64,000 bases of DNA from IMG/VR virus record IMGVR_UViG_3300006139_000001; one strand, 5' to 3'. The stretch is from a virus. The notes under the pieces were generated by a model. That model had not been told where the DNA came from, did no database searches, and worked only from the letters and a program-made list of their open reading frames with translations. Both the position numbers and the translations under genes were made by a program. Shown here piece after piece: positions 10,895 through 54,366 of this stretch. Numbering within the stretch: the stretch's first letter is position 1; the number at the start of each line of letters is the position of its first letter.

Positions 10895-10927
10895 TCTAAC
10901 ACTCCTGTAATACTTTTTCTGATTTAA

Positions 10928-11323
10928 TTAAACAGACAAAAAACTTTGAATGTAATCAACAGCACTTTCATAGTTTGGTTCGAGATGAAAGATTACAGAT
11001 TTAATGTGCGGTTTTAATTCTGTATTTTGTTCTCCAATACCAATAACAAAAATGTGTTTATCGCCAAATGTATTTATAGAGTCGATGATACCAATTTCAT
11101 AAAGGTTGTTGTCATCAACTTCTTTTACATTTACAATTACAATATCACTGTTATAAATTTGCCGCTTATTCCATTCTACAAATTCTTTATCTTCTAATCC
11201 TACCTTATACAAAGGTGGGTGGATAAATGAAACCGCATTGCCACCTTGCAGATAGATTTCTTCAACCTGTCTACGCCATACCATATCATTTCCACCCATC
11301 GTATAAACCTTAATTCTTTTCAT
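10928..11323 (-). CDS. Nucleoside 2-deoxyribosyltransferase-like protein
   Basis: 131 aa, MKRIKVYTMGG...NSDIVIVNV...IGIIDS pattern resembling the NDT/DUF4406 fold. Context is nucleotide metabolism. Confidence 0.45.
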   Translation of the reverse strand: MKRIKVYTMGGNDMVWRRQVEEIYLQGGNAVSFIHPPLYKVGLEDKEFVEWNKRQIYNSDIVIVNVKEVDDNNLYEIGIIDSINTFGDKHIFVIGIGEQNTELKPHIKSVIFHLEPNYESAVDYIQSFLSV

Positions 11324-11912
11324 CTATGATACCCATATCAAATAGTGAAAGTTGTTCGTACTCAGGTTCGGGGGATTCTGTTTTAAGAATCTCTTGGAAA
11401 CACTTTAATACTTGGTTCTCATCCATATGGAACTTTGTATTATCAATTACATAATCGACTTCCTGGATTACTTCATCAAACTGCCCAACATCGGATAAAT
11501 TTCTTCTATATGCTTCATCAATATTATCACCACGAGCTAAGATATTGATTAGTCGAGAACGACGGTCAACATACACATAGATAGAGGTCACTTTATAGCC
11601 AAGTCGCTTTAGCGCTCTAAGACCAGCCGGAGTAAGAATAGCAATAGCATTTTCAGACTCACAATCAGTCTTTGCAGTACCATAAGACCAATCTCTATAT
11701 TTTGCGTGTTCAACGAAGAAGCCACGCTTTACAAATTCATCAAAGGTAGCTTGTGGAATGAAATGGTAATCAACTCCATCAACCTCTCCTTCTCTCATTG
11801 GTCTTGTGGTATATGTAACAATTTTGTGGTATTTCGGATTTGCTTCAATCAACATCTTCAAAAGAGTTGTTTTGCCAGAAGCAGATTCTCCAAGAATTAC
11901 AATCATACACAT
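11310..11912 (-). CDS. gmk: Guanylate kinase
   Basis: P-loop GESASGKTT plus the canonical GMP-kinase motif TTRPMREGEVDGVDYHF...YGT. Confidence 0.75.
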   Translation of the reverse strand: MCMIVILGESASGKTTLLKMLIEANPKYHKIVTYTTRPMREGEVDGVDYHFIPQATFDEFVKRGFFVEHAKYRDWSYGTAKTDCESENAIAILTPAGLRALKRLGYKVTSIYVYVDRRSRLINILARGDNIDEAYRRNLSDVGQFDEVIQEVDYVIDNTKFHMDENQVLKCFQEILKTESPEPEYEQLSLFDMGIIDEKN

Positions 11913-11920
11913 TCCCTTTC

Positions 11921-12268
11921 TTAGTCATATATTTCGGAAATATCAACTTCCAATGCATCTGCTTTTTCTGTAATGGTTAGGTCATCAAACACATCTTGGA
12001 GATATTCTTTTGCACAACCTTCGCAATAATCTTCTCCATCAATCCTATATGTAGCACCTTCTTTACCACATGAATCGCAATAATCTCTTGATACGTTTAT
12101 GTATGGGCATGAATTACCTAGACATCCCATTTCAGTAGGACAGCCCACACATTCATTTTCGTACTTACGCATTGGGCAACTCAATATCATCGAATACAAC
12201 AGGGATTCTCTGCTGTAGTTCTCTGCATAGTGGGATTGCAACTTCTCTAATCTGAGGATGAGCATCAT
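11921..12268 (-). CDS. Cys-rich small protein (zinc-ribbon-like). True start probably internal, since the 5' end overlaps thyX.
   Basis: Multiple CxxC pairs (CVGCP, CDSCG, CEGC). Confidence 0.3.
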   Translation of the reverse strand: MMLILRLEKLQSHYAENYSRESLLYSMILSCPMRKYENECVGCPTEMGCLGNSCPYINVSRDYCDSCGKEGATYRIDGEDYCEGCAKEYLQDVFDDLTITEKADALEVDISEIYD

Positions 12269-12845
12269 TCGTAGTTCTCAGCTTAAAGAATGTTCTCCAC
12301 TCTCTATAGTTAGCTGTAATAGTGATATTTGTTTTGGTTGAATTAGGAAGAACAGAACGAGCAATCTGCGGAGGTGCGCCAAGTTCAATCATTTTCATAT
12401 AATGTCTCTCAGCATCTTCCATAGCTCTCAACCACTCAGAATAAATTTCTCCAATAAGGTCTGCATCGAAGTTCTTCATCTTATTGTCGAGATTGATACC
12501 GCCAATTAGGTCGATTACAGCAATCTCACTACCATACTTATCTTTAGCATAGTTTACATATCTGGTGCTTTCTTGTGCAAAACTTGCAATTCTATGTCTT
12601 ACCATTTCGTGTGATACACCACGGTCACAAGTGAAAATAACAGACAATGTACTATGCTCAATCATAGCCTCATGATGGTTATTGATAAGCATTTTTACGA
12701 AACGTTTTGCACTTTCGCCATCTTCCGTAATCTTATCTTCTGACTTATAGCAAACACGTCCAATTCTTTCAATGTGTTTTAACTCATTAACGCCACCATC
12801 TGAAATTGGCGTAAGAATCTCATACCCTGCCTTTAAAATATTCAT
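12165..12845 (-). CDS. thyX: Flavin-dependent thymidylate synthase
   Basis: ThyX signature RHRIASFAQESTRY (RHRx7S). 226 aa. Confidence 0.8.
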   Translation of the reverse strand: MNILKAGYEILTPISDGGVNELKHIERIGRVCYKSEDKITEDGESAKRFVKMLINNHHEAMIEHSTLSVIFTCDRGVSHEMVRHRIASFAQESTRYVNYAKDKYGSEIAVIDLIGGINLDNKMKNFDADLIGEIYSEWLRAMEDAERHYMKMIELGAPPQIARSVLPNSTKTNITITANYREWRTFFKLRTTNDAHPQIREVAIPLCRELQQRIPVVFDDIELPNA

Positions 12846-12854
12846 CTAACACCC

Positions 12855-13085
12855 TCATTTCTTATTCGCTACACCCAATGACCGTTCACAAAAGTCAATA
12901 ATATCTTGAAGCCTCTCGTGTTCAGTTTTTGTGTTGTCTTTTGCCTTTTCGAGAACAACTCCGCAAATTGCCTTGCTACCAGCAAGTAAACCGGAGTCTC
13001 TGACTTTTTGCATTTGCTCTCTAATTTCTTTGTTAAGCTGCTTTTCTTGGCTTTTATTCATGTGATACCTCTTATTGTTGCTCAT
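12855..13085 (-). CDS. Hypothetical protein
   Basis: 76-aa ORF only. Confidence 0.3.
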   Translation of the reverse strand: MSNNKRYHMNKSQEKQLNKEIREQMQKVRDSGLLAGSKAICGVVLEKAKDNTKTEHERLQDIIDFCERSLGVANKK

Positions 13086-13533: not shown

Positions 13534-13739
13534 AAGTTGCCTCCTATTTTATATACTTGTTGTTGAGCCTAACAGCGTGTTCGTTGCCTTATGCAATCAC
13601 TGTTGCCATCAAATGATGTCTCAGGGTTACTGGTTTGCTCAACCCTACTGGAAACCCTTTTTCGGATATTTTGTGTGTGGGAAACAAATAAAACAGCAAT
13701 TTTATTTGCATTCATTTGTTTTTCTGATTTACACAATCT

Positions 13740-13788
13740 ATTATAACATACTCCGCTCAATCTGTCAATGCTTTTTCTGATTTAATTC
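13740..13788 (-). promoter_or_regulatory. Consensus sigma-70/sigma-A promoter (TTGACA-17-TATAAT, minus strand) preceded by the conserved AATTAAATCAGAAAAA element
   Basis: rc(13763-13768)=TTGACA, 17-nt spacer, rc(13740-13745)=TATAAT. Conserved motif at 13771-13788. A second motif copy (variant) at 13721-13735. Confidence 0.6.
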
Positions 13789-15002
13789 TTCAATTCAATA
13801 AGATAATGGATAGTACATTGTTCTTCCTTATAGACAATTATTTCATCATTACGGAGCATACTTCCTTCGTGGGCATGTAAGCAATTTGCGCCAGGACAAT
13901 TTCTCTGTAGTGCTTCGTAGTTGAAATTATAATACTTGCTATCAAAAGAATACACATCATACGGCTTTCCATATGCGACATCCATTAAAGCCATGAACCC
14001 TGAGTTTGAACTACCTCTTGCCCAATAGCTACCAGATAGACTTGTGTAACCAAGTGACTTTCTTGCCTTTGGCGCATAATAAATACCATAACCAAACATC
14101 TTGCCAGTAATCACAGCATTTGTTGGTTTAAGCATCAAACCACTATTGATAATTGACCACCAGTTCTCATTGCGACTACCATGGAATAGTAACTTAGTAT
14201 CTTTGATATTATTTGCTTTTACAAATTCATCGTAACGTTTCTGAGTTTTAAGATTTTTAACTCTCCACGCTTTATAGAACTTATCTGCACAAGAACCAAG
14301 TGCCGCTTTAATTGTTGCAATGTCGTTGTTGTCGCATTCCTCAAATTCAAGACCAAGCTGTTCAAGGATAGTATAATCACATTTTTCAGTTTCTTTTTGC
14401 TCAGTCTCGTCGATAACCTGATGCTGTACTACCTGACCTCTCATAACGTCAAGAAGGTCTTGCTCTTTATCAATAATCTTCGCAAAATCATCTTTCGAGT
14501 TTGCCAGATAATACTTAACATTACTCATCTTGCGAGGAATCGTAACGAATAACTTTAGTAGAATGTCATTGAATTCGTCAACTGTTTTTGCATCAAGCAA
14601 ACTGGTCAAAATATTCTGCGCTTCATCAACCATTGCTTGTGTAACCTTATTGGATGAAATTGTATAGTTATCACTAATGGCTTTCTTAGCCATACTCTGC
14701 AATCTTTCAACAATCTCTGCGATTACTTTATTTTCGATTTCTCTGTATTTGCTATCAGTCTTAGGCTTCTCAACTTGTATTAAATCTTCAACTAAATCAC
14801 TTTGGTCAACATATCCTTTGCGTATTTTCTCGTTATATTTTGAATCCCATTGGCTCATAGGATATGTTCGGCGTTGTGGACTGCTCCCTACTCTACCGTA
14901 TTCGGCAGTCCAACTATCGCCATTAGGAATCTGTTTGTAATACTTATTGTTATTTGCAGAAGCCGTAACCATAACTAAATAGCGTGGTTTATAATCTGCC
15001 AT
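13782..15002 (-). CDS. Poly(ADP-ribose) polymerase homolog (WGR domain, helical regulatory domain, PARP catalytic domain)
   Basis: N-terminal WGR-like NNKYYKQIPNGDSWTAEYGRVGSSPQ. Catalytic H-Y-E triad intact: LLFHGSR, GKMFGYGIYYAP, RNDEIIVY. 406 aa. Confidence 0.8.
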   Translation of the reverse strand: MADYKPRYLVMVTASANNNKYYKQIPNGDSWTAEYGRVGSSPQRRTYPMSQWDSKYNEKIRKGYVDQSDLVEDLIQVEKPKTDSKYREIENKVIAEIVERLQSMAKKAISDNYTISSNKVTQAMVDEAQNILTSLLDAKTVDEFNDILLKLFVTIPRKMSNVKYYLANSKDDFAKIIDKEQDLLDVMRGQVVQHQVIDETEQKETEKCDYTILEQLGLEFEECDNNDIATIKAALGSCADKFYKAWRVKNLKTQKRYDEFVKANNIKDTKLLFHGSRNENWWSIINSGLMLKPTNAVITGKMFGYGIYYAPKARKSLGYTSLSGSYWARGSSNSGFMALMDVAYGKPYDVYSFDSKYYNFNYEALQRNCPGANCLHAHEGSMLRNDEIIVYKEEQCTIHYLIELKN

Positions 15003-15014: not shown

Positions 15015-15452
15015 TTATAGTACATAAACTACAATCTCGATGTCTGAATCCTCAAACACATCCTCGATGACATCCACAACTCTATCCCAATCCAGCTTAT
15101 CAAGTCCTGCGCCAATTCTTGGCATAGCCAGCTTGGTAATATCCAAATTCTCACACTGTTCTCTCATATCAACAAGAGTTTCGTACAAGGAGTCGTATGT
15201 CGGCTTATGAAAACATCTTGCCTTAGTAACAAGGTTGAATACATTATCAACTAGTAGCGCTTCTCCTACATAGCCATACTTCTCTCCGTCCGCAATGGGA
15301 TAATCTCTGTACAGCTTGAAGCGCATATTGTACACTTCATCAAACTTCTTGGCAATGCCAGCACCAAGGGCAAAATCGCCAGAAATACAATGTGCAAGGT
15401 AATATCCCTGCGGTGCGGTAAACAAATCGCCGTTTTTCTCAGTAAAAGTCAT
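15015..15452 (-). CDS. Macro-domain protein (ADP-ribose binding/hydrolase, MacroD/DarG-like)
   Basis: YYLAHCISGDFALGAGIAKKF and MPRIGAGLD macro-domain motifs. 145 aa. Immediately downstream of the PARP gene. Confidence 0.8.
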   Translation of the reverse strand: MTFTEKNGDLFTAPQGYYLAHCISGDFALGAGIAKKFDEVYNMRFKLYRDYPIADGEKYGYVGEALLVDNVFNLVTKARCFHKPTYDSLYETLVDMREQCENLDITKLAMPRIGAGLDKLDWDRVVDVIEDVFEDSDIEIVVYVL

Positions 15453-24566: not shown

Positions 24567-24711
24567 TTCTCATTTACCTTTCATTTCTTTTTCTGATTTA
24601 ATTCTTCGCTCTAAACTAAGCGTCTCTTACCGAACAATCAATAGAATCACCTTTTCTTTATTTTGAAATATCTATATTAAACACCCTTGCGGATGGGATT
24701 GTTTGATGAAC

Positions 24712-25568
24712 TTAATAATTTGTAATTAGTACCTCAACACTACTGTTCGCAGATTTATCCTTGGTTTGGTAGTTGCAATTTTTATAGTCCATATTTAGAT
24801 AGTGGACATTGTACTTTTTGCACCATTGCTTTAGAATATCATTAGATTTGCCTTTATGTTCTAACACATTTGAAAGCGCCCATTTATATTCCGCTGCATT
24901 CAGTTCATCCAGATAATCAAGGAGTTTCTTTTCGTAGTCGGCAGACCATTTACAAAAATAGTCTCTTTCATATGCGCCGACAGTAATCAGATATGGTGGG
25001 TCAACATACACAAAAGCATTCTCAGGATTACACAACGAGCCTATATCTACATCAACGAAGTCCTTAGATAGAAATAAAATGTTGCTTTTATTTTTGACTT
25101 CTATATAGGATTTTAGCTTTTCTCTTAGTTGCGGACTAAAGTAGCTTCGTCCTGCGCCAGATGGCATATTGTACTCACCTTTTGAGTTAAAAGCTATCTG
25201 ATAGTTAAAAGCGTGTGTTAGTAGGCAATATAGGAGAACTGCATTTTCTCTGCTGGTCATTGCACCTAAATGCTCATTGTAATATTGTCGCAAATTCAGG
25301 AAACCTTGTTTGTTTTCTTTTGAGAGTTGCCATCTATTAATGACATTATCTACATCTGCAACAAAGTCGCTATCCAGGTTTTTGAAGATATTAACCAGCG
25401 GAGCAGATTTCTCGTTGTATATGTATTTGTTTGCTTCTGTATTAAATGTTACTTCGCCACTCCCCCGAACAAATCTACAAATGTATCAATGTCTGACGGG
25501 AAAAGAGGAAGTATTTGTGGTAATAGTTTGTACTTTGCTCCAATGTAGTTGAATGGATTCTTGTACAT
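24712..25568 (-). pseudogene. DNA adenine methyltransferase (Dam family) interrupted by a frameshift at a G5 tract (plus-strand C5 at 25462-25466)
   Basis: ATG at 25568 opens MYKNPFNYIGSKYKLLPQILPLFPSDIDTFVDLFGG, then a stop. With six instead of five G the frame continues ...FGGSGEVTFNTEANKY... into ORF 24712-25293, which carries the DPPY motif (VDPPYLITVGAYERDY). Preceded by an RBS and a consensus promoter. Confidence 0.75.
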
Positions 25569-25573
25569 AAGCT

Positions 25574-25620
25574 ATTATACCTCCTTTTCTCTGCTATGTC
25601 AATAGTTTTTCTGATTTAAT
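25574..25620 (-). promoter_or_regulatory. Consensus promoter (TTGACA-17-TATAAT) plus conserved upstream element, driving the Dam gene
   Basis: rc(25597-25602)=TTGACA, spacer 17, rc(25574-25579)=TATAAT. The ATG at 25568 lies only 5 nt after the -10, suggesting a leaderless or near-leaderless transcript. Motif at 25606-25620. Confidence 0.55.
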
Positions 25621-25622
25621 TT

Positions 25623-26822: not shown

Positions 26823-28088
26823 TCAGTCCAATGTTTTTTCTGATTTAATCTTTTGAATTATATTTGACTTCCCATTAAAGTCATAATATTGTTGAGCAAT
26901 ATGTGGGTAAAGCGCCTCAACCATCTCCATCGCTCTCCACTCTGAACCTTTTATACCAATATCTTTTAGATACTGCTCAACATCTCTTTTGTAAAGTTTA
27001 TATCCATTTTTTCTCATCCCTCTACATTGACAAAATAATCGGAATGTAAATGTATTAAATATTGATGGTTGGTTACACCAAGCAGCAACAGCAGCATAAA
27101 ATGATGAAAACTCAGACTCATATACCTTTTCAAAACGCATTATATATGGCTTTGCACCATATTTGCTTAATATATCAATCCTATCAAACAGATTTTTTAT
27201 ATCTGTTTCCCAAAACGAGTTATCATATTTATCTTTCTTGTCGCATCCACAGAAAACATAAAATTTCAATTCTCTTTTCCAATTTGGTACGGTTTTTCTT
27301 ATCAATTCAAGTTTGGATATTATCAAATCTTTATCTTCAATATTATCAAATGCAAATATCATTTCTCCATCGTACTTCCACTTGGAAATTTCAAGTATTT
27401 TTTCTACTGTCAGCAATCTTTCATCTAACCCTTGTTTAAACTGAAATCTCTTTCCGCTATTAATTACTGGTTGTATTAGTTCTTTCCACTTTGCATATCC
27501 AAAGAAATTATCGTCTAAGAAACATACTTTTGGTCTACTATCATCTAAGAATTCGCTCAAAGAGCTTGCCTGAACAGCACCTTTATAATTCCTATTCACA
27601 CAATAATAACAACCTCTAAAACATTTTCTTGTAAGATAACCAATAGAATAATCAAGATAATATGTAAATTCAGAGCGTTTTGCTCCATTGGCTATTGCAT
27701 TGTTTACCCATTCATCGTATAGATGATAGTCTGGCATGATATGTTCTATCTCATTTGGCAGAGATGGCGCTTTATCATAAAAAAAACCAGTTCCACCGTA
27801 TTCGATATTTGGTTGTTTTAGAAATTCATTATCCTTATACCATTCTGAAATATTATCAGATGTTTTATTTGATTTATCTTCTGGCTCTCCTGGAATTTCT
27901 GTATCGGTAAATACTTTTGAGATATATACCTTATCAAATACTTCTAAACCTTCATAATCGGTTTTTAGTATAACATTGTCACCAAGTTTTTTATGATAAG
28001 CCGATATTTTCATGGAACACAAATTCGGAAATCTGTGCTTTTTCTTGCCTACAATATCAGCATCTATAACCGCAATTTTTCTACTCAA
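26823..28088 (-). CDS. Radical SAM enzyme (possibly with an N-terminal cobalamin-binding-like domain)
   Basis: CFRGCYYC (CxxxCxxC) about 160 aa into a 421-aa protein. N-terminal RKIAVIDADIVGKKK...KISAYHKKLGDNVIL resembles B12-binding-domain starts of class B radical SAM enzymes. Tentative. Confidence 0.55.
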   Translation of the reverse strand: MSRKIAVIDADIVGKKKHRFPNLCSMKISAYHKKLGDNVILKTDYEGLEVFDKVYISKVFTDTEIPGEPEDKSNKTSDNISEWYKDNEFLKQPNIEYGGTGFFYDKAPSLPNEIEHIMPDYHLYDEWVNNAIANGAKRSEFTYYLDYSIGYLTRKCFRGCYYCVNRNYKGAVQASSLSEFLDDSRPKVCFLDDNFFGYAKWKELIQPVINSGKRFQFKQGLDERLLTVEKILEISKWKYDGEMIFAFDNIEDKDLIISKLELIRKTVPNWKRELKFYVFCGCDKKDKYDNSFWETDIKNLFDRIDILSKYGAKPYIMRFEKVYESEFSSFYAAVAAWCNQPSIFNTFTFRLFCQCRGMRKNGYKLYKRDVEQYLKDIGIKGSEWRAMEMVEALYPHIAQQYYDFNGKSNIIQKIKSEKTLD

Positions 28089-30365: not shown

Positions 30366-30752
30366 TCAATCTTTATCAGTGATGCAAAAATTCTTTAAAT
30401 TATCTAGTATATGAAAACGAATAAGGCATAAAATCATTTGGTATATATCTCCTTCGCAACTATCCCATTCAAAATAAACTGAATTTTCTCTTACCATTTC
30501 AATTAGTTCATCAATTTTATCTTCAAAACATTCTGATGCCTCTGCTCCTGTATCGGTTGTTACCCAAGTGTCGTATGCCGTTTCTTCTCGCCTAATTCGT
30601 GGTTCTAACTCAGTTTTAATGCGGAACTCATAATGTTGTCTAGTGTCTTGCTCTTTTTTAAGTTTTATATTTAACTCTCGAATTATATCCCGTTGTTCAT
30701 CAATTTTGTATTTAAGTTGGCGTATGTATTCTTCATATTCTTTTTCGCTCAT
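30366..30752 (-). CDS. Hypothetical protein (coiled-coil N-terminus)
   Basis: 128-aa ORF. Confidence 0.3.
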   Translation of the reverse strand: MSEKEYEEYIRQLKYKIDEQRDIIRELNIKLKKEQDTRQHYEFRIKTELEPRIRREETAYDTWVTTDTGAEASECFEDKIDELIEMVRENSVYFEWDSCEGDIYQMILCLIRFHILDNLKNFCITDKD

Positions 30753-36660: not shown

Positions 36661-36888
36661 TTACTTTTTCTTTTTCTTTGCTGTGCACTTTAGTTGGTGC
36701 TTTCTATCAGAAGTATTAGAATTAATATCTGTCTTTTTCTGATTTACTTCTTTATCCTTAAAAATAAGAGGTATCTTTTTGGACTCATACCAGCAACGTG
36801 GACATCGGTGAAATTCGTATGCTTTACTATCGTAAAAGCTCATTACACGTTTCATGACCTGGTTGCATTTCCTACAGAACATAATCAC
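36661..36888 (-). CDS. Small zinc-ribbon protein
   Basis: CRKC...CPRC. Lys-rich tail. 75 aa. Confidence 0.3.
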   Translation of the reverse strand: MIMFCRKCNQVMKRVMSFYDSKAYEFHRCPRCWYESKKIPLIFKDKEVNQKKTDINSNTSDRKHQLKCTAKKKKK

Positions 36889-36914: not shown

Positions 36915-36964
36915 ATTATAGCACATTCCGTTCTGTTTGTCAATACTTTTTCTGATTTAATTTA
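36915..36964 (-). promoter_or_regulatory. Consensus promoter TTGACA-17-TATAAT plus conserved upstream element
   Basis: rc(36938-36943)=TTGACA, rc(36915-36920)=TATAAT. Motif at 36945-36964. Confidence 0.55.
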
Positions 36965-40171: not shown

Positions 40172-40260
40172 TTTAGAAAATCCGATGTATAATATGCGTA
40201 TATCGGGTCACATTTTCTAAACCGTACTCTAAGTATAGCAGATAATTTTCTAATTGTCAA
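40165..40260. promoter_or_regulatory. Divergent promoter/operator switch region: plus-strand TTGACA(40165-40170)-17-TATAAT(40188-40193); minus-strand TTGACA(rc 40255-40260)-17-TATACT; three copies of the 9-bp operator-like word TTAGAAAAT
   Basis: Word at 40173-40181 (plus orientation), 40212-40220 and 40245-40253 (reverse orientation). They flank or overlap the -10/-35 boxes between the Xre repressor gene and the minus-strand operon. GGAGG RBS before ATG 40171. Confidence 0.6.
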
Positions 40261-40303
40261 GAGGAAATTTAGAATATTTGACCGCACTTTAGGAGGAAAC
40301 ATT

Positions 40304-40663
40304 ATGGAATCCATTTTATATCAGAGAATAAAAGCATTATGTGAAAGAAAAGGAATAAGCATTGCAAAATTAGAATCAGAATTAGGATTTGGTAACGCTT
40401 CTATCAAAAAATGGGGTCGTGTCAGCTCTCCATCTGTAGATAAGATAATAAAAGTCGCTGGTTATTTTGACGTTTCGGTAGATTACTTACTTGGTAGGAC
40501 AGATATAGAGGGTTCTATATCTGAGGTAATTGGCGACGAAGATATTATTTCATTCCAAAGAGCAAGACAGAAAATGACTCAAAAGGATAAAGAGCGTATG
40601 ATGCAAATGCTTAAACTTGGCTTTGAGTATGCTTTCTCTGACCAGGAGGGCGATGGTAAATAA
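40304..40663 (+). CDS. XRE-family helix-turn-helix transcriptional regulator (phage repressor-like)
   Basis: HTH LCERKGISIAKLESELGFGNASIKKWG. 119 aa. Confidence 0.75.
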   Translation: MESILYQRIKALCERKGISIAKLESELGFGNASIKKWGRVSSPSVDKIIKVAGYFDVSVDYLLGRTDIEGSISEVIGDEDIISFQRARQKMTQKDKERMMQMLKLGFEYAFSDQEGDGK

Positions 40664-41272
40664 ATGGTGCGATATGTCTATATAAATAATTTGGTGCTTG
40701 ACATTTATGAAATGCTACCAAAGATTCAGTTTCCTCTCGATATTAAAAGTGTTATCAATTATTTCCCTAACTGTAGATATATGTCTTATCAAGATTTTGC
40801 AAAGATTAATAGATGCTCAATCGAAGATGTTATTCAAATTTGCGAAAGCAAATCTGGTTGCACACATTACGACATAATGCAAAATAGATACTTAATTCTT
40901 TGCAATCAGTCAACACAGGACAACAATAACATTGGTAGGCAACGTTGGACTTGTGGGCATGAAATTGGTCATGTGGCTTGTAATCATCATGCTATATCTG
41001 CTTATGAGAAACTTTCAGAAAACAGCCTATTGCAGATTGACAATGCCGAATATGAAATGGAAGCCGATTATTTTGCTGCCACCATATTAGCACCATTTCC
41101 ATTATTTAAGTTGTTTGATGTTAAGTCTGCTATTGACATTCAAAACATATTTGGTCTTTCTACGGAAGCATCTTTGTATAGGTATAAACAATATTTAAAA
41201 TGGCTCAAAACAAGAGTTAAAACTTCCTGGGAAAATGATATGATAAGACTTTATAAGCAGAAGAATATTTAA
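40664..41272 (+). CDS. ImmA/IrrE-family metallopeptidase (anti-repressor protease)
   Basis: HEXXH zinc motif CGHEIGHVACNHH. Immediately downstream of the Xre gene. Confidence 0.7.
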   Translation: MVRYVYINNLVLDIYEMLPKIQFPLDIKSVINYFPNCRYMSYQDFAKINRCSIEDVIQICESKSGCTHYDIMQNRYLILCNQSTQDNNNIGRQRWTCGHEIGHVACNHHAISAYEKLSENSLLQIDNAEYEMEADYFAATILAPFPLFKLFDVKSAIDIQNIFGLSTEASLYRYKQYLKWLKTRVKTSWENDMIRLYKQKNI

Positions 41273-42485: not shown

Positions 42486-43541
42486 TTACTCTCCATTATT
42501 ATTTGTATCAATACCAAACATTATAGAACTGCTATCACCAGACACATACTGCGGAAGCTGACCATTCCACTTTTTAATCCACATTTCCTGTAAAATCTGT
42601 TCAGTAATAGATTTTTCAAGTAGCTCATTAGCCTCTGCTTCTGCCTCTGCTGCAATGACCTTTGCTTCTGCTTCGGCTTCTGCATTGGTCTTTTTAACAG
42701 TAGCGTCTGCCTCTGCTTTTTCGATTGCTCTTTGGTTTTCAATAGCTTGCTGTTCGGCTTCAAGTTGTGCTTGCTGCTTTGCCGCAATAGCCTGGTTATA
42801 CGAATCTTCAAAATCGGCGTTGCTGATAATCACCTTGTTAATATATACAACATTCTCACCATACTTCTCATCGAGAGATTTTTGAAGATTCTCCATAGCA
42901 ATAGGTTCAATAATAGAACGGTTAGTTGCATCTGTATCAGATAGGCTCTTGCTACTTGCCTTTATAGCAGATGCTACAATGCTCTGATTAATAAGTGCAT
43001 CTTTATAATTAGCTACGTTTGCATAAATCCAAGCAGACTTCTCAGGATTAATTTGATATGTGATAATAACTCCATCATAGTAAATAGCGGTTCGCTTAGA
43101 AGTCTCAGACCAAATTTGCCCATCAAATGTAATATCCTGCTGTTTATTATTCACCTTTTCAATAGATTGTATATAAGGTAACTTCCAGTTGAAACCATTT
43201 TGAACAGTAACAGAATCAATCTGTCCAAATGTAGTGCGTACACCAGTGTAACCAGTTGGAATAATTACGATTGCGCAAGAGAATGTAAATAGTACGATAG
43301 CTACCAAAACGCCAACAATAGTGTACTTAGTTTTTACCTTGGTATATGTACCATCGCCATGATACGAATTTCTAACCTTTCTTGCTCGTGCAGAGTTAAT
43401 CATAACTGGAATTACAATAGCTACGACAAAAATTAAGATAGCCACAATTTTCAAAAATACTGTCATTTTTGTTTTAATCTCCTTATCTTGATGATTGAAT
43501 ATCATCTGAATATTTAGTTTTTGAAGTATATATATTATCAA
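42486..43541 (-). CDS. SPFH/band-7 (prohibitin/HflK-like) membrane protein
   Basis: N-terminal TM segments, SPFH core, and a long Ala/Glu/Gln-rich coiled coil (AKQQAQLEAEQQAIENQRAIEKAEADA...). Confidence 0.65.
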   Translation of the reverse strand: MIIYILQKLNIQMIFNHQDKEIKTKMTVFLKIVAILIFVVAIVIPVMINSARARKVRNSYHGDGTYTKVKTKYTIVGVLVAIVLFTFSCAIVIIPTGYTGVRTTFGQIDSVTVQNGFNWKLPYIQSIEKVNNKQQDITFDGQIWSETSKRTAIYYDGVIITYQINPEKSAWIYANVANYKDALINQSIVASAIKASSKSLSDTDATNRSIIEPIAMENLQKSLDEKYGENVVYINKVIISNADFEDSYNQAIAAKQQAQLEAEQQAIENQRAIEKAEADATVKKTNAEAEAEAKVIAAEAEAEANELLEKSITEQILQEMWIKKWNGQLPQYVSGDSSSIMFGIDTNNNGE

Positions 43542-44694
43542 AATACTGCCTTAAATCATTTATTGTACAATTACCAGCAATATCATTGGTATAATTGAGA
43601 TGAGAAACCAAAAGAGAAATTGTTGCATCTTGGATAACACTCTTTGATAAACCAATATCTTTTTGTACTCTGCCCAAGAATTCATCAAGGTCGAATTTTC
43701 CATATCTGATAGATTCTTGAAAATCGTTATGCACATTCGTTTTATCTTCAATGCAAGGATTTATTTCTTCTTTTTGGCACTCAGTAGGAAACGCACCCGC
43801 TCCATGTCTTGTAAAATAAGACCTCGTTATGTAACAGATTTCAACATCAAAACCATATGGCTTAATTCGATTTATGGGGATAAATGAAGTTGTTTTGCTT
43901 GCTGTAATATATGGAAGTGCTTTTTTGTTATCCTCGTCAAGTTCAAGTCCCTGCGCACCCTCAAAAACAATGATGTCATACATAGAGATAAGTTTATCAA
44001 ATGAAATCTGAATAACCTCTCTCTGCATTTGTCTAAGGTCTGACAAATAATGTTTAGCTAAACCATAAGAATTAATAAGTTTTTGATATTCTTCTGGTAT
44101 CTCTGTTATACCATAGCTGGCAAGTCGTTCTGGGAGATACTTATAAGCAATATCATGCAAATAACGAATGATTTCGTAATCTGTTTTGTGCTGTAATTCG
44201 CCGTATTTTAATGAATACCTTCCATCTTCGTATCGCTTTTGTGTTTCCCAAATACCATATCCACAAGAGCCATGCCTATTGTTTGCCCTTGATGTTTCAA
44301 CAATTTGGTTGATAAACATATCGTATGGTGTTGTTACTCTGCATTCCGGCGAAATATAACACTTTGGGAATTCATATCCAAATTCTTTCATTATGGTGCA
44401 GAGTGTTTCTTTTTCTTCAACAAACACCATAGGGTTCACCATAAAGTCTTGGTCAAAGTAAGTATGAGCATTATCAAATGAGCCAGAACCGAAGTGATGG
44501 AAAATGTGTCGAATGCCATTTTTCAATTCTACTGTATGACCTCTTTGACATCCACCATTAAAGAGAATATTTAAACAGAATTTGTTATCTTGATTTGCTT
44601 TTTGTGAAAAGTAGTGAGTTGCAAGACCTTTGCCTTCATCTCCATAATTGCTACCTACTACTACTTTGACCTCAACTTTACTCATATCTATCAC
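43483..44694 (-). CDS. Adenylosuccinate-synthetase-family protein (PurA homolog; candidate PurZ)
   Basis: N-terminal VVVGSNYGDEGKGLATHYF (GDEGKGK P-loop of PurA) and NGGCQRGHTV (PurA QGGHNAGHT region). 403 aa, shorter than bacterial PurA (~430). Confidence 0.7.
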   Translation of the reverse strand: MIDMSKVEVKVVVGSNYGDEGKGLATHYFSQKANQDNKFCLNILFNGGCQRGHTVELKNGIRHIFHHFGSGSFDNAHTYFDQDFMVNPMVFVEEKETLCTIMKEFGYEFPKCYISPECRVTTPYDMFINQIVETSRANNRHGSCGYGIWETQKRYEDGRYSLKYGELQHKTDYEIIRYLHDIAYKYLPERLASYGITEIPEEYQKLINSYGLAKHYLSDLRQMQREVIQISFDKLISMYDIIVFEGAQGLELDEDNKKALPYITASKTTSFIPINRIKPYGFDVEICYITRSYFTRHGAGAFPTECQKEEINPCIEDKTNVHNDFQESIRYGKFDLDEFLGRVQKDIGLSKSVIQDATISLLVSHLNYTNDIAGNCTINDLRQYFDNIYTSKTKYSDDIQSSR

Positions 44695-46185: not shown

Positions 46186-46425
46186 TTAATGGCATAATAC
46201 ATACTTTGTGTATCGAGCTTCATTCCCATATCTATCGGTGCATACCATATCTTCACCATTGATATTGAACTGTTTGCGTAAATTGTAGATAATGGCACTC
46301 AGTCTTGTTGCGCCATATAAGTCAATCGCCTCCAGGCTTGTAATTGAACCGAACTTCTGCAAATGTTCTAACACTTTTTCTGTCTTATTCATTGACCTTG
46401 TGTTTCTCGTTCTTCGCTTCATCAT
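46186..46425 (-). CDS. Small basic protein (winged-helix DNA-binding?)
   Basis: 79 aa. RBS GGAGG 8 nt upstream. Conserved motif directly upstream. Confidence 0.35.
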   Translation of the reverse strand: MMKRRTRNTRSMNKTEKVLEHLQKFGSITSLEAIDLYGATRLSAIIYNLRKQFNINGEDMVCTDRYGNEARYTKYVLCH

Positions 46426-46490
46426 TACTAATCCTCCAATCGTTTTTCTGATTTAATTATTTGGATACTCGAATAAGGTGTTTGTTTGGT

Positions 46491-47165
46491 TCACCTTACA
46501 TTAGACATTATATCATACTTTTTTGGATTTGTCAATACTTTTTCGGATTTAATTCTAATTTCTTTTCGTTGCATTATCCACCAGTAATCAACTTGCTTGT
46601 AATCTCTACCAAAATAGTAGATATAGATATAATCATCTTTTTCAGAAACAAACAATCTACCATTGTAGCTGACCGGCGCTCTTTTGATTGACTTCATGAT
46701 TTTTCTGGCAATCTTGTCAACAGTACTTTGTGTCATACCCCAATTTCCATCGAAATATGGTTCAATCCAATTATTAAAATTGAGCCGATGTTCTTTATAT
46801 TCTTCTCGCTGCTTTAGTATACTCTTATAAGCCACCTCCAGTTCTTCAATAGTGTGCGGCTCTTTAGAATACCTAAAATCCTCTTTCTTTTCCTGGATTT
46901 CTTCTAAGTTCAAAATAGTATTGAAAAAAGATGTACCAAACGGCTCTATCTGTTTATGTATATAGAGATAATCCATATACATATTAAATTCTTCCTCATC
47001 GTAGTCTGGCTCTGAATCATAGAAATGCTCAGTAAATTCTCTTACAAAGTAATGCTGAAAAAGCCAATCAATGAACTTATTGCTTGGCTTCAATCGTCTA
47101 AATGTTAAATCCTCTGTCCTGTTAATATGTAGCGCCTTTTCAATCAAATCAGTACGTATATTCAT
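46491..47165 (-). CDS. Hypothetical protein
   Basis: 224-aa ORF. SD AAAGGAG and a consensus promoter upstream. Confidence 0.35.
   Translation of the reverse strand: MNIRTDLIEKALHINRTEDLTFRRLKPSNKFIDWLFQHYFVREFTEHFYDSEPDYDEEEFNMYMDYLYIHKQIEPFGTSFFNTILNLEEIQEKKEDFRYSKEPHTIEELEVAYKSILKQREEYKEHRLNFNNWIEPYFDGNWGMTQSTVDKIARKIMKSIKRAPVSYNGRLFVSEKDDYIYIYYFGRDYKQVDYWWIMQRKEIRIKSEKVLTNPKKYDIMSNVR
46507..46555 (-). promoter_or_regulatory. Consensus promoter TTGACA-17-TATAAT plus conserved upstream element (overlaps the 3' end of the upstream ORF)
   Basis: rc(46530-46535)=TTGACA, rc(46507-46512)=TATAAT. Motif variant tttttcGgatttaat at 46538-46552. Confidence 0.5.
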
Positions 47166-47188: not shown

Positions 47189-47238
47189 ATTATATCACAC
47201 TTTATAGCGAATGTCAATACTTTTTCGGATTTAATTTG
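47189..47238 (-). promoter_or_regulatory. Consensus promoter TTGACA-17-TATAAT plus conserved upstream element
   Basis: rc(47212-47217)=TTGACA, rc(47189-47194)=TATAAT, then AAAGGAG and ATG 47165. Motif at 47220-47235. Confidence 0.55.
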
Positions 47239-47564: not shown

Positions 47565-49236
47565 TTATGTTACGCTCACTTGCGGAATGGTAAAATTTTC
47601 ACTGTTAATATCATCAAATAATCTATCTAAACCGACTTCAAAAGCGCCGATACCAGAGAAGTAACTACCAACTTTCAAATCATCAAACAAATAAGGCATC
47701 GCTTCGTATAGCTCTTTGAATATGTAATACAGAACATTTGTGACGATAGAGTTACCAGCTTGTTTATATAGCTGGCTATTGCTTACTCCTGCTTTCTCAG
47801 CTCTGTCAAATGCTTCATCTGAAAAACCCATAAGCCTCCAGCATTCTTTTGGCGTTAGTTTTCTAATTCTATAACCAACATCATTATTTTCAATCACTCG
47901 TTTGTCACCCCCGAATCAATGGTTCTAATCGTACCGATTGCATCATCTTTGAATGTTCGTAGACCTTCATCCATACGTCTTTCACATACCATTTTCATAT
48001 CATTTACCTTAACCAACACTTTAGGTTCTCGCTCTCCCCCCTGACAAGTGTTTATTGTTGGAGCAATACCGCCAATAGAATACACTCTGCCACATTGAGG
48101 ATTGCTAAATGTTGGTGTTCCTTTTCTTAAATTTCCTAATTGGATTATCTTGTTCATTATCATTCTCCAAAATCATTATTGAAGTTTTGATACCCAACGC
48201 TGCACATAAGGTAGGTGCAACACCCCCCCGCACCATATACAATGTTGGACTGATGCTTACCAGTTCCTTTTTCTAAAAAACCTACTTCTTCGATATTTCT
48301 CATAATTACTTCTTTGATAAGGCTACAACTCCATTCATACTTTGGTTTCCAAATCCTTTATAGTCTCTGGCAAGAAGTGTATTTGCAACTTCGGTTTCTC
48401 TATCGAAAACGCTACATTGTTTTGAGAAAAGTCCAGGCATTAAATCTGAACCATATCCCATTGATGTCGGTCTACACTTCCTCTCTCCCCCCCGCCCTTA
48501 TGGTGTTGGATATTTCTTTATCAAGTTTGCCACTTGATACAAGGTCATCAATAAGTGCTTTAGCTTGTGGAGTGTTGATATAATATTTCTCGTCAACTTC
48601 ATCTTCAAGAATATCTTTCAGCCTTAGACCATTATCAAACGGTTCTGGGAATTTGAACTTACCGTTATCAAACTCCTTCAGAATAATAATCAGATATACA
48701 CGTTCACGGTTTTGTGGAATACCGTAGTCTTTTGCATTTAACACCTGGAAATATGTATTATAGCCGTACTCGTGCAGCTCACCTAAAAACATCTGGAATG
48801 TCTCTTTGAACTGTTTACCGACGATGTTTTTGACATTTTCATAGATACCCCATTTAGGTTTATTGGCTCTAATAATTCTGAGCCATTCAACAAGTAACGA
48901 ACTTCTTGTTTTGTCAAGGCTCTCGCTGCCGCAATTCGGGCATTGATGTCTCTTTGAATAATGCACGGTGAGTGGATTGTATTCGTGACCACAATTAGAA
49001 CACTGCCACTTGCTACCTGCTTGCTTACCGGCTACTGAGAAATCTTGACACGGACTACCGCCACAAATCATATTAAATGGTTTTAGACTTGTCTCATCTA
49101 CTTTTGTTATATCTCCAAGATTTAAGGAATCATCAACACCATGCACAGCGCAGTAACTTTTCACAGCGTACTTATCAAACTCACAAAAATTCGCAAGTTC
49201 ATAACCTTTTCTTGAAGTGCTGTTTTTATTATCCAT
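47565..49236 (-). pseudogene. C5-cytosine DNA methyltransferase coding region broken into at least 3 ORFs (48472-49236, 47894-48163, 47565-47897) with G7 tracts at the breaks, and motif I located after motif X
   Basis: 48472-49236: PCQ (GGSPCQDFSVAGK), ENV, QNRERVYLI, starting right after the motif-I position (GYELANFCEFDKYA). 47894-48163: GRVYSIGGIAPTINTCQGG. 47565-47897: motif X RKLTPKECWRLMGFSD...AGNSIVTNV, then in frame motif I LKVGSYFSGIGAFEVGL. Minus-strand G7 tracts at 48487-48493 and 48223-48229. A -1 shift at each restores MTase-like sequence (…ANTLLARDYKG…, …IVYGAGGVAPTLCAALG…). Confidence 0.6.
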
Positions 49237-49924: not shown

Positions 49925-50989
49925 TTACACAATTTCCTTGCATTTTTTCTCCCACGGAAATACACCATTACCAAAGTGACCAAACATTGCAGTAGGATAG
50001 TACTTAATATCTTTCAAATTAAGGTCACGAATAATATTAGATGGAGCGCATTCAGGATAAACCCAGTTAAGGTCAGTAATATTACCTTTGTCGGTTCTTA
50101 CATAAATACCAAGTGGGACATCTAAGCCAATGGCATAAGATAGCTGGATTTCGCACCAGCTAATATCTGGTTTAGATTCAAGACATTCAATAGCAAGCTG
50201 TCTTGCTTTGTATGCGGCACTACGGTCAACCTTTGTCGGGTCTTTACCGCTAAAGGCGCCTCCACCAACATTTGCAAACGATTGGTAATTATCAACCACA
50301 ATCTTTCTGCCGGTCAGACCTGCATCACCATCAAAACCTCCAATAAGGAACTTACCAGTGGGATTGATATGAAAAGATTCAATATTATCAATGTCATATT
50401 CGTGACAAACCTCAGTTACAAAGTCAATTAGAATCTTATCGGTTTCTTCTCGTTCAACCTCTGTATTCTGATAAGAGATAGTGAAGTCTTTAATACCAAT
50501 CAGTTTTTTGTCATTATCGTAAATACCAGTAATTTGAGCTTTACCATCTGGCAAAAATCTTTTATCATTGTGACATAGTGCATCATAAAACTTTGATAAT
50601 GTCTGAAGGATAACCATTGCTTTGGGTAAATACTGTGGCGTTTCTCTGCAAGCATAGCCGAACATCATTCCCTGGTCGCCAGCTCCACCAGTATCTACAC
50701 CCTGCGCAATATCTGGCGACTGCATTCCAATATTGTTGATAATCTCATAATTAGTCTTATAACCAATATCACGGAGAACAGATTTGACTACCGTTTCTAT
50801 GTTCACGTTTGCCGCCGAAGTGACTTCACCTGTGATAAAGATTTTACCCTTGCCACCAACTACTTCAATTCCGCAACGACTATTCTTATCCTGTTCAAGA
50901 AACGCATCAAGCAAAGCATCGCTAATCTGGTCGCAAACTTTGTCTGGATGTCCTCTAAACACAATCTCATTACTGTAAAAATAACTCAT
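49925..50989 (-). CDS. metK: S-adenosylmethionine synthetase
   Basis: MetK hallmarks GHPDKVCDQISDA, GAGDQG, GGGAFSGKDPTKVDRSAAY. 354 aa (somewhat shorter than bacterial MetK). Confidence 0.8.
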   Translation of the reverse strand: MSYFYSNEIVFRGHPDKVCDQISDALLDAFLEQDKNSRCGIEVVGGKGKIFITGEVTSAANVNIETVVKSVLRDIGYKTNYEIINNIGMQSPDIAQGVDTGGAGDQGMMFGYACRETPQYLPKAMVILQTLSKFYDALCHNDKRFLPDGKAQITGIYDNDKKLIGIKDFTISYQNTEVEREETDKILIDFVTEVCHEYDIDNIESFHINPTGKFLIGGFDGDAGLTGRKIVVDNYQSFANVGGGAFSGKDPTKVDRSAAYKARQLAIECLESKPDISWCEIQLSYAIGLDVPLGIYVRTDKGNITDLNWVYPECAPSNIIRDLNLKDIKYYPTAMFGHFGNGVFPWEKKCKEIV

Positions 50990-50993
50990 TCCA

Positions 50994-51266: not shown

Positions 51267-51268
51267 AT

Positions 51269-52642: not shown

Positions 52643-52650
52643 AATTTATC

Positions 52651-53145
52651 TTACTTCTCACTAAAAATTTCTTTAATTTCACCATTCTTGTAATAGATTC
52701 TTGCGTCAGGTGTAGTCCAACCATACTCATTAGCAAGATACTGCGCATATTCTTCGATGTTCTTGAACGCAATAGTACCAACATATTGTCTAGCGGAACT
52801 ATAAGAAGGAGTTTCAAATTCAGGCTGCTTAATAACGGTATATTTCCCATATTTACGATTCCATTCATCAATTACTGCATCTCTACCATGGAAATCATAC
52901 GAAGAAACCTTATAACCATCGGAATTGAGTTTTTCGATGTCGATTTCATCATAATAAGAACTCCATCTATCGCCGCAACATGGGCAATCTATACCCTTGC
53001 TTACACCATCCCAATAACAACCAAGGCTCTCGGCAATTTCAAGTGCATCTCCCCCGCAATCTGCCTCAATAAACAAACGATGGCATACTTTATCATTCAC
53101 GATAAAAGCACCGCCAGAATTATTCTGGTCAAACAAATAGAACAT
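52651..53145 (-). CDS. Hypothetical protein
   Basis: 164-aa ORF. Confidence 0.3.
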   Translation of the reverse strand: MFYLFDQNNSGGAFIVNDKVCHRLFIEADCGGDALEIAESLGCYWDGVSKGIDCPCCGDRWSSYYDEIDIEKLNSDGYKVSSYDFHGRDAVIDEWNRKYGKYTVIKQPEFETPSYSSARQYVGTIAFKNIEEYAQYLANEYGWTTPDARIYYKNGEIKEIFSEK

Positions 53146-53180
53146 AATAAACTCTCCTTTATTTTCTTTGTTTTTCTGAT

Positions 53181-54089
53181 TTAATTTATATATGTAAAGA
53201 TATATGCTATTACATCAACTGTCCAGCCATCTCCAATCAAGTCTGCTGCATCTTTTTCCGAAAGATTCTTTATATACTTTTCAGGAATAGTTTGTAATTT
53301 TGCTCGTTCCTCTTTCCAAAGGTATCTTGCACAATCAAATACATTTCCACTGTAATTATCAAATATCTCTGCTTTTGGTTTTGCGTTCCCAACAACTCTT
53401 TCAAACTCTTTCTTGCATTCTTCAAATTTCTCTTTGTTTGGGAATATCATCGTTGAAAAAGCCTTGTAAAACCATCTGTAAAACCTTTTGCTTGAAGTCC
53501 AATTACAACCATTGTAATAACCGTGAGAATCATTCTTCATTAAACAGCGAGATTTTTTATATGGGTAATAACCTTCAATTAAAATGTCGTTCACACTTAC
53601 ATCTTTTGTTGGAAAATTATCCACTGAAAAAGGTATGTTCGTCCAATAAAGTCTATCTCTCATTTGTGCGGTTATCTGTTTAGAATTTATACGAACCGGT
53701 TTTACTCCAAGCGATTCGGTTATAACTTGTTCGTCATCTTTCTTCATAATGACATTTTCCATTAGGAAATATCTTGGATTAACCTCATGTAAAACTCTAT
53801 TACATTCTAAAAACAAACCAGACCGAATCCTATCTTCAAGACCAATTCTTCTTTCTATTTTCATTGCTCTGCTAAAACTTTGGCAAGGAGAACCGAACAT
53901 TACCAAATCAAATGTTTCTTCAAACTTCCCAAAATCAGTGAATAAAATGCCATCTTTGTATTGAACATTATTTACATCTCCAATATGTATCGTGTCTGGA
54001 AAATTTTCTTTGGTCGTCCTAATTGCTATTTCTTTTATTTCAGAAGCATAATACTTCTTTACTTTGATGCCGACCTTTTCAAGCGCCAT
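53181..54089 (-). CDS. C5-cytosine methyltransferase-like protein lacking a translated motif I
   Basis: PCQ (MFGSPCQSFSRA), ENV (FLMENVIM), QxRxR (QMRDRLY), and a motif-X-like C-terminus. The open frame upstream of ATG 54089 encodes a degenerate motif I (ITVLSLCDGISCGR) but has no start codon back to the stop at 54171-54173. Confidence 0.55.
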   Translation of the reverse strand: MALEKVGIKVKKYYASEIKEIAIRTTKENFPDTIHIGDVNNVQYKDGILFTDFGKFEETFDLVMFGSPCQSFSRAMKIERRIGLEDRIRSGLFLECNRVLHEVNPRYFLMENVIMKKDDEQVITESLGVKPVRINSKQITAQMRDRLYWTNIPFSVDNFPTKDVSVNDILIEGYYPYKKSRCLMKNDSHGYYNGCNWTSSKRFYRWFYKAFSTMIFPNKEKFEECKKEFERVVGNAKPKAEIFDNYSGNVFDCARYLWKEERAKLQTIPEKYIKNLSEKDAADLIGDGWTVDVIAYIFTYIN

Positions 54090-54318
54090 TCTTCCACAAC
54101 TAATACCATCACATAGACTTAAAACTGTAATTCCATCTTGTGATGATAAAATATCTTTTTTATTACACCGCTAACCTTCAAAGTTTGAGAGGTTAAAAGC
54201 GTAAATAAAACCGATAGAACATATTGCTCAATGCTAAACTCCCAAATTAGGAGGATTTATGGAAGAAACAAGTGTTAAAAAAGATATTTACTCTTTGCCT
54301 CTCCCAATTACATTTCAT

Positions 54319-54366
54319 ATTATAGCACATTTCTATCGGTTTGTCAATAGTTTTTCTGATTTAATC
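54319..54366 (-). promoter_or_regulatory. Consensus promoter TTGACA-17-TATAAT with extended TGc -10, plus conserved upstream element
   Basis: rc(54342-54347)=TTGACA, rc(54319-54324)=TATAAT. Motif at 54351-54365. Confidence 0.55.

Follow-up and report, generated by a model that had tools for sequence, protein, structure and literature searches.

Operators repeated across a whole genome have been established by experiment in only a few groups of phages (Cluster A mycobacteriophages, SPβ). In SPβ, the element termed SPBRE is the operator of the master repressor MrpR/YopR, and MrpR peaks have been reported only within the prophage (PMC10516654). The sites of L5-type repressors are asymmetric 13-mers that occur at promoters and in short gaps between genes, follow the direction of transcription, and lose their function when inverted (PMC9283540). 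Upstream promoter (UP) elements of Bacillus subtilis have proximal and distal subsites centred near -43 and -53, and the early promoters of phi29 are reported, in work that the same paper cites, to use such elements (PMC4495994). Host Spo0A boxes, in turn, occur in the early promoters of phi29 and Nf (PMC2731898). Here, I describe a short repeated element, hereafter referred to as the box, in the 64,000-nucleotide (nt) IMG/VR virus record IMGVR_UViG_3300006139_000001 (the whole stretch is called the window), where it stands in a fixed register upstream of six consensus sigma-A promoters and recurs, without such a promoter, at further gene boundaries.

The box is a real, highly non-random, and biologically meaningful feature. 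By analogy with the repeated operators of SPβ and L5, I favour with moderate confidence the reading that it is a sequence-specific protein-binding cis-regulatory site overlaid on the UP position, similar to SPBRE/MrpR or to the L5 operators and stoperators. This reading draws on the anatomy, orientation, and positional classes of the box, on its copies in host chromosomes, and on its variants in diverged phage lineages, from which I infer a bound protein with a repressive effect and of either phage or host origin.

A co-oriented box at gene boundaries

Counting matches to the plus-strand core TTTTTCTGATTTAAT at up to two mismatches gave 14 copies (Table 1), against 1.42 expected from dinucleotide shuffling; the largest count in a shuffled window was 4, and 0 of 100 shuffled windows reached 14. 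All 14 copies lie on the same strand, in the orientation of the minus-strand genes; read along these genes, the box is ATTAAATCAGAAAAA. The most over-represented 11-mers of the window likewise come from the box (11 copies, where the next unrelated 11-mer has 5), and the opposite strand of the window has no copy of the box 11-mers. An element that is repeated and always oriented with the minus-strand genes had been proposed earlier from the bare sequence; this original prediction is confirmed, and its coordinates agree with those found here within 0-5 nt.

The boundaries of the box were defined by aligning 45 non-redundant sites from the window and its relatives, picked at up to two mismatches. 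The alignment showed an asymmetric element of 16-19 bp with sharp edges, A-ATTAAATCAGAAAAA-S-N-A, a contiguous block in which the C is invariant (45/45) and the G nearly so (41/45). Every copy in the window occupies a gene boundary (14/14), in a minus-strand gene block of which 7.7% is non-coding: 11 copies either lie in non-coding DNA or touch coding sequence only at the stop codon of the upstream gene, and the remaining three fall within the last few codons of open reading frames (ORFs) that read through the box. In four cases the TAA stop of the upstream gene lies inside the box. A full-text literature search for the box sequence and its variants returned nothing relevant.

Table 1. Copies of the box in the window by positional class, the gene g66, and box variants of diverged lineages (aa, amino acids; SD, Shine-Dalgarno).
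Feature	Position	Box start	Strand	Sequence or composition	Surroundings
Class I composite	13740..13787	13772	-	A-ATTAAATCAGAAAAA-gca-TTGACA(13768-13763)-17-TATAAT(13745-13740), TGn extended -10	stop TAA of upstream PARP-like gene inside box
Class I composite	25574..25621	25606	-	box-cta-TTGACA(25602-25597)-17-TATAAT(25579-25574)	upstream of frameshifted Dam-like methyltransferase gene
Class I composite	36915..36962	36947	-	box-gta-TTGACA(36943-36938)-17-TATAAT(36920-36915), TGn	stop codon of CCA-adding enzyme gene inside box
Class I composite, C variant (ATTAAATCCGAAAAA)	46507..46554	46539	-	-gta-TTGACA(46535-46530)-17-TATAAT(46512-46507), TGn	
Class I composite, C variant	47189..47236	47221	-	-gta-TTGACA(47217-47212)-17-TATAAT(47194-47189), TGn	
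Class I composite	54319..54366	54351	-	box-cta-TTGACA(54347-54342)-17-TATAAT(54324-54319), TGn	~230-nt leader between promoter and DNA methyltransferase gene
Class II copy	13719..13733	13719	-	TGTAAATCAGAAAAA	begins 6 nt after TATAAT of the 13768 promoter
Class III copy	10914..10928	10914	-	no promoter	19 nt before nrdD start codon; stop of upstream gene overlaps box
Class III copy	24588..24602	24588	-		21 nt before start codon of Sak-like annealing protein
Class III copy	46443..46457	46443	-		17 nt before start codon of g66 (winged-helix PF14090 protein)
Class III copy	53171..53185	53171	-		25 nt before start codon of gene 52651-53145; stop of methyltransferase gene inside box
Promoter-less copy	36734..36748	36734	-	AGTAAATCAGAAAAA	85 nt upstream of RNA ligase gene
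Promoter-less copy	26835..26849	26835	-	-35-like TTGGAC follows, no -10	last codons of radical-SAM ORF; 103 nt before next gene
Weak variant	6602..6616	6602	-	ATTACATCAGAAAAA	19 nt upstream of -35 of serine-integrase promoter (TTGAAA 6582-6577, TATAAT 6559-6554), off-register
g66	46186-46425		-	79-aa extended winged-helix protein, PF14090	
L020/L029 variant				promoter-linked AATAATTCAGAAAAA; promoter-less AATAAGACAGAAAAA or ...AAGGCAG...	promoter-less at start site and before sak, nrdD, and HNH gene directly upstream of RNA ligase gene
L023 variant				promoter-linked AATAACACCGAAAAA; promoter-less the same	promoter-less before sak
L053 variant				promoter-linked AATAAATCTGAAAAACCAC; promoter-less ...CTGAACAACYAC	promoter-less before genes
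L051 variant				promoter-linked AATAATTTAGAAAAACCTC; promoter-less AATAAGATAGAATAATACA	
L054 variant				promoter-linked ACCCAACAAAGTAG abutting TTGACA; promoter-less the same	promoter-less before sak and RNA ligase gene

Promoter-linked copies and their counterparts on host chromosomes

Six minus-strand promoters match TTGACA-17-TATAAT with 0 mismatches, and each of the six has the box exactly 3 nt ahead of the -35 hexamer, with an invariant gap between AAAAA and TTGACA. These promoter-linked copies are referred to as class I, and five of the six promoters additionally have a TGn extended -10. The box spans -54 to -36, with A5 at -43 to -39, AAA at -50 to -48, and AA at -54/-53. Both the perfect promoters and the placement of the box where a UP element or activator site would be had been part of the original prediction and stand, the same spacing being found at host transfer RNA (tRNA) and ribosomal-protein promoters. 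Apart from the box, the six promoters have no element in common. A seventh perfect promoter, on the plus strand at 40165-40193, drives the ImmR-like repressor gene and has no box, and other good promoters (40260 and 28380) go without it too. That host sigma-A drives early transcription, as had also been suggested, is plausible.

One genome per prokaryotic species was then searched for box-NNA-TTGACA. This yielded 17 loci, mostly in rabbit-gut Clostridia metagenome-assembled genomes (MAGs) and also in Acutalibacteraceae and Oscillospiraceae MAGs; the exact class I pattern had no occurrence in IMG/VR or the JGI metagenome set. About half of the 17 loci are relatives of the window phage at ~80% nucleotide identity, and the rest are host chromosome. 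On the latter, the composite of box and promoter lies directly upstream of tRNA-Leu(tag) in four MAGs, beside genes for a P-type ATPase and rplM, and also directly upstream of tRNA-Ser, tRNA-Met/Glu, and the rpmG-secE-nusG-rplK-rplA-rplJ operon. Other consensus promoters in the same host loci have no box, and no promoter-less copy was present in the ~60 kb of host DNA examined. Because the same box and spacing occur at host promoters, the promoter-linked form is a host-type upstream promoter element.

The main rival reading starts from here. The box might be nothing other than a UP element, a local, lineage-typical booster of consensus sigma-A promoters in phage and host that is contacted by the C-terminal domain of the RNA polymerase alpha subunit (alpha-CTD), with the promoter-less copies being remnants of promoter cassettes or having no function of their own. 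The position and the A5 and AAA tracts match the B. subtilis subsites (PMC4495994), the spacing to the -35 is fixed, the box is found at host tRNA, ribosomal-protein operon, and ABC-transporter binding-protein promoters, and phi29, as cited in that paper, offers a phage precedent. Decay of the promoter-less copy at the nrdD site in one close relative (L009) would fit as well. Against it stand the other consensus promoters of the same host loci, which lack the box, and the promoter-less copies and lineage variants discussed in the next section.

Two side observations concern the loci of this section. The Dam-like (D12) methyltransferase gene behind the promoter at 25602 (24712-25568) is broken: its frame ends after 39 codons and the remainder of the enzyme lies in another frame (24712-25293), which is either a frameshift pseudogene or an assembly error. 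The ATG of this gene lies 5 nt past TATAAT, so its mRNA would be leaderless. On the host side, one host locus shares a 198,730-bp contig with two phage-like loci, and the homology between L013 (6538-6622) and its phage-free relative L005 (5418-5502) ends exactly at the 3' end of tRNA-Leu(tag). Given this break and the related prophage on the L013 contig, the tRNA may be the integration site of that prophage or of another island.

Promoter-less copies, lineage variants, and candidate binders

Eight of the 14 copies have no promoter in register, and four of these eight match the 15-nt core perfectly. One lies over a start site (class II), four lie 17-25 nt before start codons (class III), and three (36734, 26835, 6602) are placed 85-103 nt ahead of the next gene. 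The class II copy, 53 bp from a class I copy, begins 6 nt after the -10, so the expected start site is covered by the box. At the class III copies only an SD sequence stands between box and start codon, as had been noted earlier for 10914, 24588, and 46443, to which 53171 is added as a fourth. The accompanying suggestion that the box can also serve weaker promoters is not supported: no -35/-10 is in register, and any start site would fall within the coding region. A hidden sigma-A promoter at the promoter-less sites was rejected, none being in register.

The copies near start codons invite the idea of a compact middle or late promoter for a phage-encoded or phage-modified polymerase, with transcription starting at the 3' edge of the box, 5' untranslated regions of roughly 15-30 nt, and a tandem arrangement with the sigma-A promoter at the six composites. 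This would account for a contiguous, oriented, and lineage-specific block resembling T7-type promoters and placed directly upstream of the SD. I consider it very unlikely, since the same box stands at host chromosomal promoters, the invariant -35 spacing in every lineage would be left unexplained, the 64-kb window yielded no gene for an RNA polymerase or a sigma factor, and no box precedes the plus-strand structural-type genes at 1-4646.

An RNA-level signal has an even smaller chance and is extremely improbable in my estimate. Here, the transcribed box would be a processing site, a translational operator, or a translational enhancer in the mRNA leader, to which the four copies 17-25 nt before start codons and the A-rich, unstructured sequence would be suited. 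The box lies upstream of the start site in the composite promoters and in the host copies, however, and the predicted class II start falls at the first base of the box in the window, at about the fourth in L016, and at about the seventh in L029, so that the RNA of the two relatives would lack part of the box. This also leaves unsupported the dual DNA/RNA signal that had been offered as an alternative in the original prediction. The leader at 13.7 kb has no unusual fold (z = -0.79), the window gave no Rfam match except tRNAs, and an A-rich enhancer would not require a perfectly conserved 15-mer.

T4-type phages have promoter-stem-loop cassettes at gene-block boundaries, and box and promoter could similarly form a mobile cassette at the boundaries of exchanged gene blocks. 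The cassette at 13.7 kb is kept in the relative L016 despite different, unrelated flanking genes, the genes downstream of box-promoter cassettes vary between lineages, and a ~5.6-kb indel relative to L003 ends near box copies. Such mosaicism would account for the spread of the box but not for its function, and it leaves the fixed -35 register, the strict orientation, and the copies at host tRNA promoters unexplained; as an account of the element it is very improbable.

The promoter-less sites can be followed into other lineages. The nrdD-site box is kept in L016 and, as a variant, in L029, the orthologue of the sak site in four other lineages bears each lineage's own box variant, and so do the sites equivalent to 36734 in L003, L020, L053, and L054. 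In distant relatives, lineage-specific sequences that are consistent within each genome take the place of the box near the sak and immR orthologues (Table 1), and the promoter-less sites persist at orthologous positions (sak, RNA ligase, nrdD) with their sequence shifting jointly with that of the promoter-linked copies. In L020/L029 the box is AATAATTCAG at promoters versus AATAAGACAG at promoter-less sites, L023 has one box common to both (AATAACACCG), that of L053 is AATAAATCTGAAMAACYAC, and the L054 box is not an AT-rich tract. Scans of IMG/VR for the L054-type box gave single, chance-like matches only. GAAAAA is retained by the promoter-linked copies of L051, L053, and L020 and deviates in their promoter-less ones, which fits an extra UP constraint acting only at promoters.

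These results bear on the UP element as a complete explanation. It would have to accommodate eight copies without an in-register promoter, four of them perfect over the 15-nt core, which persist at orthologous sites in diverged lineages and co-vary with the promoter-linked copies, and it does not predict a box such as that of L054 or a C that is invariant and a G that is nearly so. I regard it as rather unlikely. The promoter-less copies and the variants changing together within a genome instead support binding by a regulator, so that of the function predicted originally the UP or activator position and the regulator are supported, and the service to weaker promoters and the dual signal are not.

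Separately, a second conserved box, AGTAAATGAGTTAC, was seen just past the -10 of class I-type promoters in several viral or metagenomic contigs (L031, L044, L074). In L074 it precedes the gene for a 339-aa tyrosine-recombinase-family protein, which recalls MrpR-type regulators.

By its gene content, the window represents the early/replication arm of a large temperate phage that infects an anaerobic member of the Clostridia, with a large serine integrase, NrdD/NrdG, ThyX, dUTPase, several DNA methyltransferases, and nine tRNA genes, genes for a DnaE-like polymerase, primase, DnaB, and a Sak-type annealing protein, an RNA-repair set together with an NAD-dependent ligase, and a plus-strand pair of an ImmR-like helix-turn-helix (HTH) protein and an ImmA-like M78 protease. 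Serine integrase, ImmR/ImmA pair, and relatives on host contigs together make the phage a temperate one. Megablast against phages found no close relative among deposited phages and ruled out SPβ or a near relative of it; the best DnaE relative is that of Clostridioides phage pCD1602_4 at ~50% identity. Metagenomes hold thousands of relatives, many of them on contigs of ~155-169 kb and some on host contigs of 200-390 kb. Counts of intrinsic terminators on the gene strand, including those beside boxes, were not above chance, and in an arm without evident terminators read-through into early genes would need blocking.

In the mechanism proposed for the protein-binding reading, a sequence-specific DNA-binding protein would read the box over the position that alpha-CTD contacts. 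At the six consensus sigma-A early promoters the box is probably both a strong host-type upstream element and an operator, and a protein bound beside the -35 would repress or modulate initiation. Bound to the class II copy over the start site it would block initiation, and bound to the class III copies before early genes it would block read-through, which could keep the entire early/replication module silent in the prophage or switch it during infection. Silencing of this kind would be needed by a temperate phage whose replication module holds six otherwise unprotected consensus promoters.

The genes of the ImmR-like HTH protein (40304-40663) and the ImmA-like protease (40664-41272) lie on the plus strand, next to face-to-face consensus promoters (plus strand 40165 and minus strand 40260). 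Four ImmR-type half-sites, TTTAGAAAAT, cluster only at 40172-40277 and are at chance frequency elsewhere, which leaves the six strong promoters without another shared candidate operator. Half-sites of this type are unchanged in L051 and L053 although the boxes differ, and the box as an ImmR operator was rejected: the half-sites differ from it, are confined to one place, and stay conserved where the box varies.

Known host regulators were likewise set aside. The CodY box is a 15-bp palindrome, AATTTTCWGAAAATT. Compared by eye, 8 of 15 positions match, mainly in the TCAGAAAA half; our box is non-palindromic and its non-matching half is perfectly conserved. The consensus sequences of integration host factor (IHF, WATCARNNNNTTR), the Spo0A box, and alternative sigma factors were also compared by eye, and none fits.

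Several observations weigh against the protein-binding reading. The identical box and spacing at host promoters in several MAGs of different families point to host RNA polymerase or a host factor as the reader, and a phage repressor would also hit these host promoters. A looser pattern, AAATAATWCAGAAAAA-NNA-TTGACA, is widespread in phage or viral, metagenomic, and host-like contigs and occurs also at a host ABC-transporter binding-protein promoter. The decay of the nrdD-site box in L009 belongs here as well. Pfam/PHROGs scans of the window showed no sigma factor, RNA polymerase gene, or further regulator; there is no MrpR/YopR homologue in it (best E = 0.079), and phmmer and tblastn searches for an L5 gp71 homologue, which covered the 64-kb window of a ~160-kb genome, gave no match better than E = 0.57. 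Lastly, g66 is the sole DNA-binding-type protein that was found in the window apart from ImmR, and its recognition helix is almost the same in lineages whose boxes differ.

This near-invariance leaves g66 only a weak candidate for the putative box binder, despite the position of its gene directly behind one class I and one class III copy. Its predicted fold is a generic extended winged helix whose best matches are TFIIE/TFE-alpha (template-modelling score of about 0.68). The binder may be encoded by the phage, as the lineage-specific variants would favour, or by the host, as would follow from the identical box in hosts of different families.

Other features of the window were noted in passing. 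The RNA-repair set consists of a kinase/HD protein (32606-33625), an RNA ligase (35338-36648), a CCA-adding enzyme (36957-38168), and an RlaP nucleotidyltransferase (39119-40141), and it is accompanied by the nine-tRNA array (61965-62993), a combination that suggests defence against tRNA-cleaving host systems. A C5 cytosine methyltransferase seems to be split in two: its N-terminal part, which includes a zinc ribbon, is encoded at 48472-49236 and its C-terminal piece separately at 47565-47897. Auxiliary genes unusual for a phage code for a formate/nitrite transporter family protein (59652-60266), an SPFH/Band 7 protein (42486-43466), an adenylosuccinate synthetase-like protein (43483-44694), and an S-adenosylmethionine synthetase (49925-50989). 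A diversity-generating retroelement occupies 41-3437, with its reverse transcriptase gene at 2232-3437, a template repeat at 1782-1923, and a variable repeat at 642-783 that lies at the 3' end of the DUF6273 target gene (41-790); the two repeats differ at 11 of 142 positions, all 11 at adenines of the template repeat.

Implications and comparison with known systems

A bolder variant of the protein-binding reading takes in the host copies too. A phage-encoded regulator could have evolved to recognise the upstream element of host tRNA and ribosomal-protein promoters, giving a combined immunity and host-takeover switch through UP-element mimicry, which I hold to be quite unlikely. If it were true, one protein would silence or time the phage early genes, through sites at promoters, over the start site, and in roadblock positions, and compete with alpha-CTD at the promoters of the host translation machinery, and its specificity would drift between phage lineages as immunity groups do. 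T4 Alt/ModA modify the alpha subunit of RNA polymerase. The window has an ADP-ribosylation toolkit of a WGR+PARP-like transferase (13782-15002), a Macro-domain protein (15015-15452), and an ADP-ribosylglycohydrolase (30749-31546), and by analogy these gene products might act on the RNA polymerase alpha contact.

Irrespective of this variant, an operator function of the box would extend the principle of genome-wide repeated operators to the ~160-kb temperate phages of gut Clostridia, which form a large, widespread, and uncultured family. The natural specificity variants in at least five lineages are a resource for the search for the binder and for the evolution of immunity and promoter specificity, and the composite promoters are candidates for very strong, possibly regulatable promoters for the genetics of Oscillospirales.

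Compared with UP elements such as those of Escherichia coli rrnB P1 and of B. subtilis and phi29 early promoters, the promoter-linked box shares the position relative to the -35 and the phasing of A-tracts, as well as the occurrence at tRNA and ribosomal-protein and very strong phage early promoters (PMC4495994). The promoter-linked box is AT-rich with A-tracts near -43 and -53, and 6 of the 14 copies lie at the UP position upstream of a core promoter (about -38 to -59), while 8 do not. The box is, however, far more conserved than natural UP elements, and its sequence is exchanged from one lineage to the next; the invariant C and the near-invariant G do not fit the type, nor do the eight copies without an in-register promoter and the L054 variant. 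The Spo0A boxes offer a likeness in that phage early promoters bear sites of a host regulator, which would fit a host-encoded binder of the box, but they are short 7-mers without a fixed register.

For SPBRE, a consensus (~CAAATACAAAWAATATGTATAT) was derived here from the upstream regions of seven published targets of MrpR in chromatin affinity purification sequencing (ChAP-seq). SPBRE sites fall into the same three positional classes as those of the box: shortly before the -35 (aimR and yonX), shortly past the -10, and shortly before the SD (the second yonX copy, yopV, and yopM). Both are repeated asymmetric elements of ~15-22 bp that share the orientation of the phage genes and are restricted to the early region of their large temperate Firmicutes phage. 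In contrast, the sequences are unrelated (CAAATACAAAWAATATGTATAT versus ATTAAATCAGAAAAA), the window has no homologue of the tyrosine-recombinase-like MrpR, the gap to the -35 is 5 nt in SPβ and 3 nt for the box, and MrpR peaks are confined to the prophage whereas the box occurs also at host tRNA and ribosomal-protein promoters.

The L5 gp71 operators and stoperators resemble the box in being numerous and asymmetric, in lying at promoters and in short gaps between genes, and in following the direction of transcription, and in both systems the site sequence varies with the phage lineage (PMC9283540, PMC6550527). They differ in host phylum and sequence, no homologue of the monomeric repressor gp71 (HTH plus stoperator domain) is present in the window, and the promoter-linked copies of the box abut the -35 from upstream rather than overlapping it. 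By its anatomy the box fits the kind of the repeated operators, and it is a member of neither the SPBRE nor the L5 family; new compared with both are the fusion in a fixed register to perfect sigma-A promoters at the UP position and the identity with an upstream element of host tRNA and ribosomal-protein promoters.

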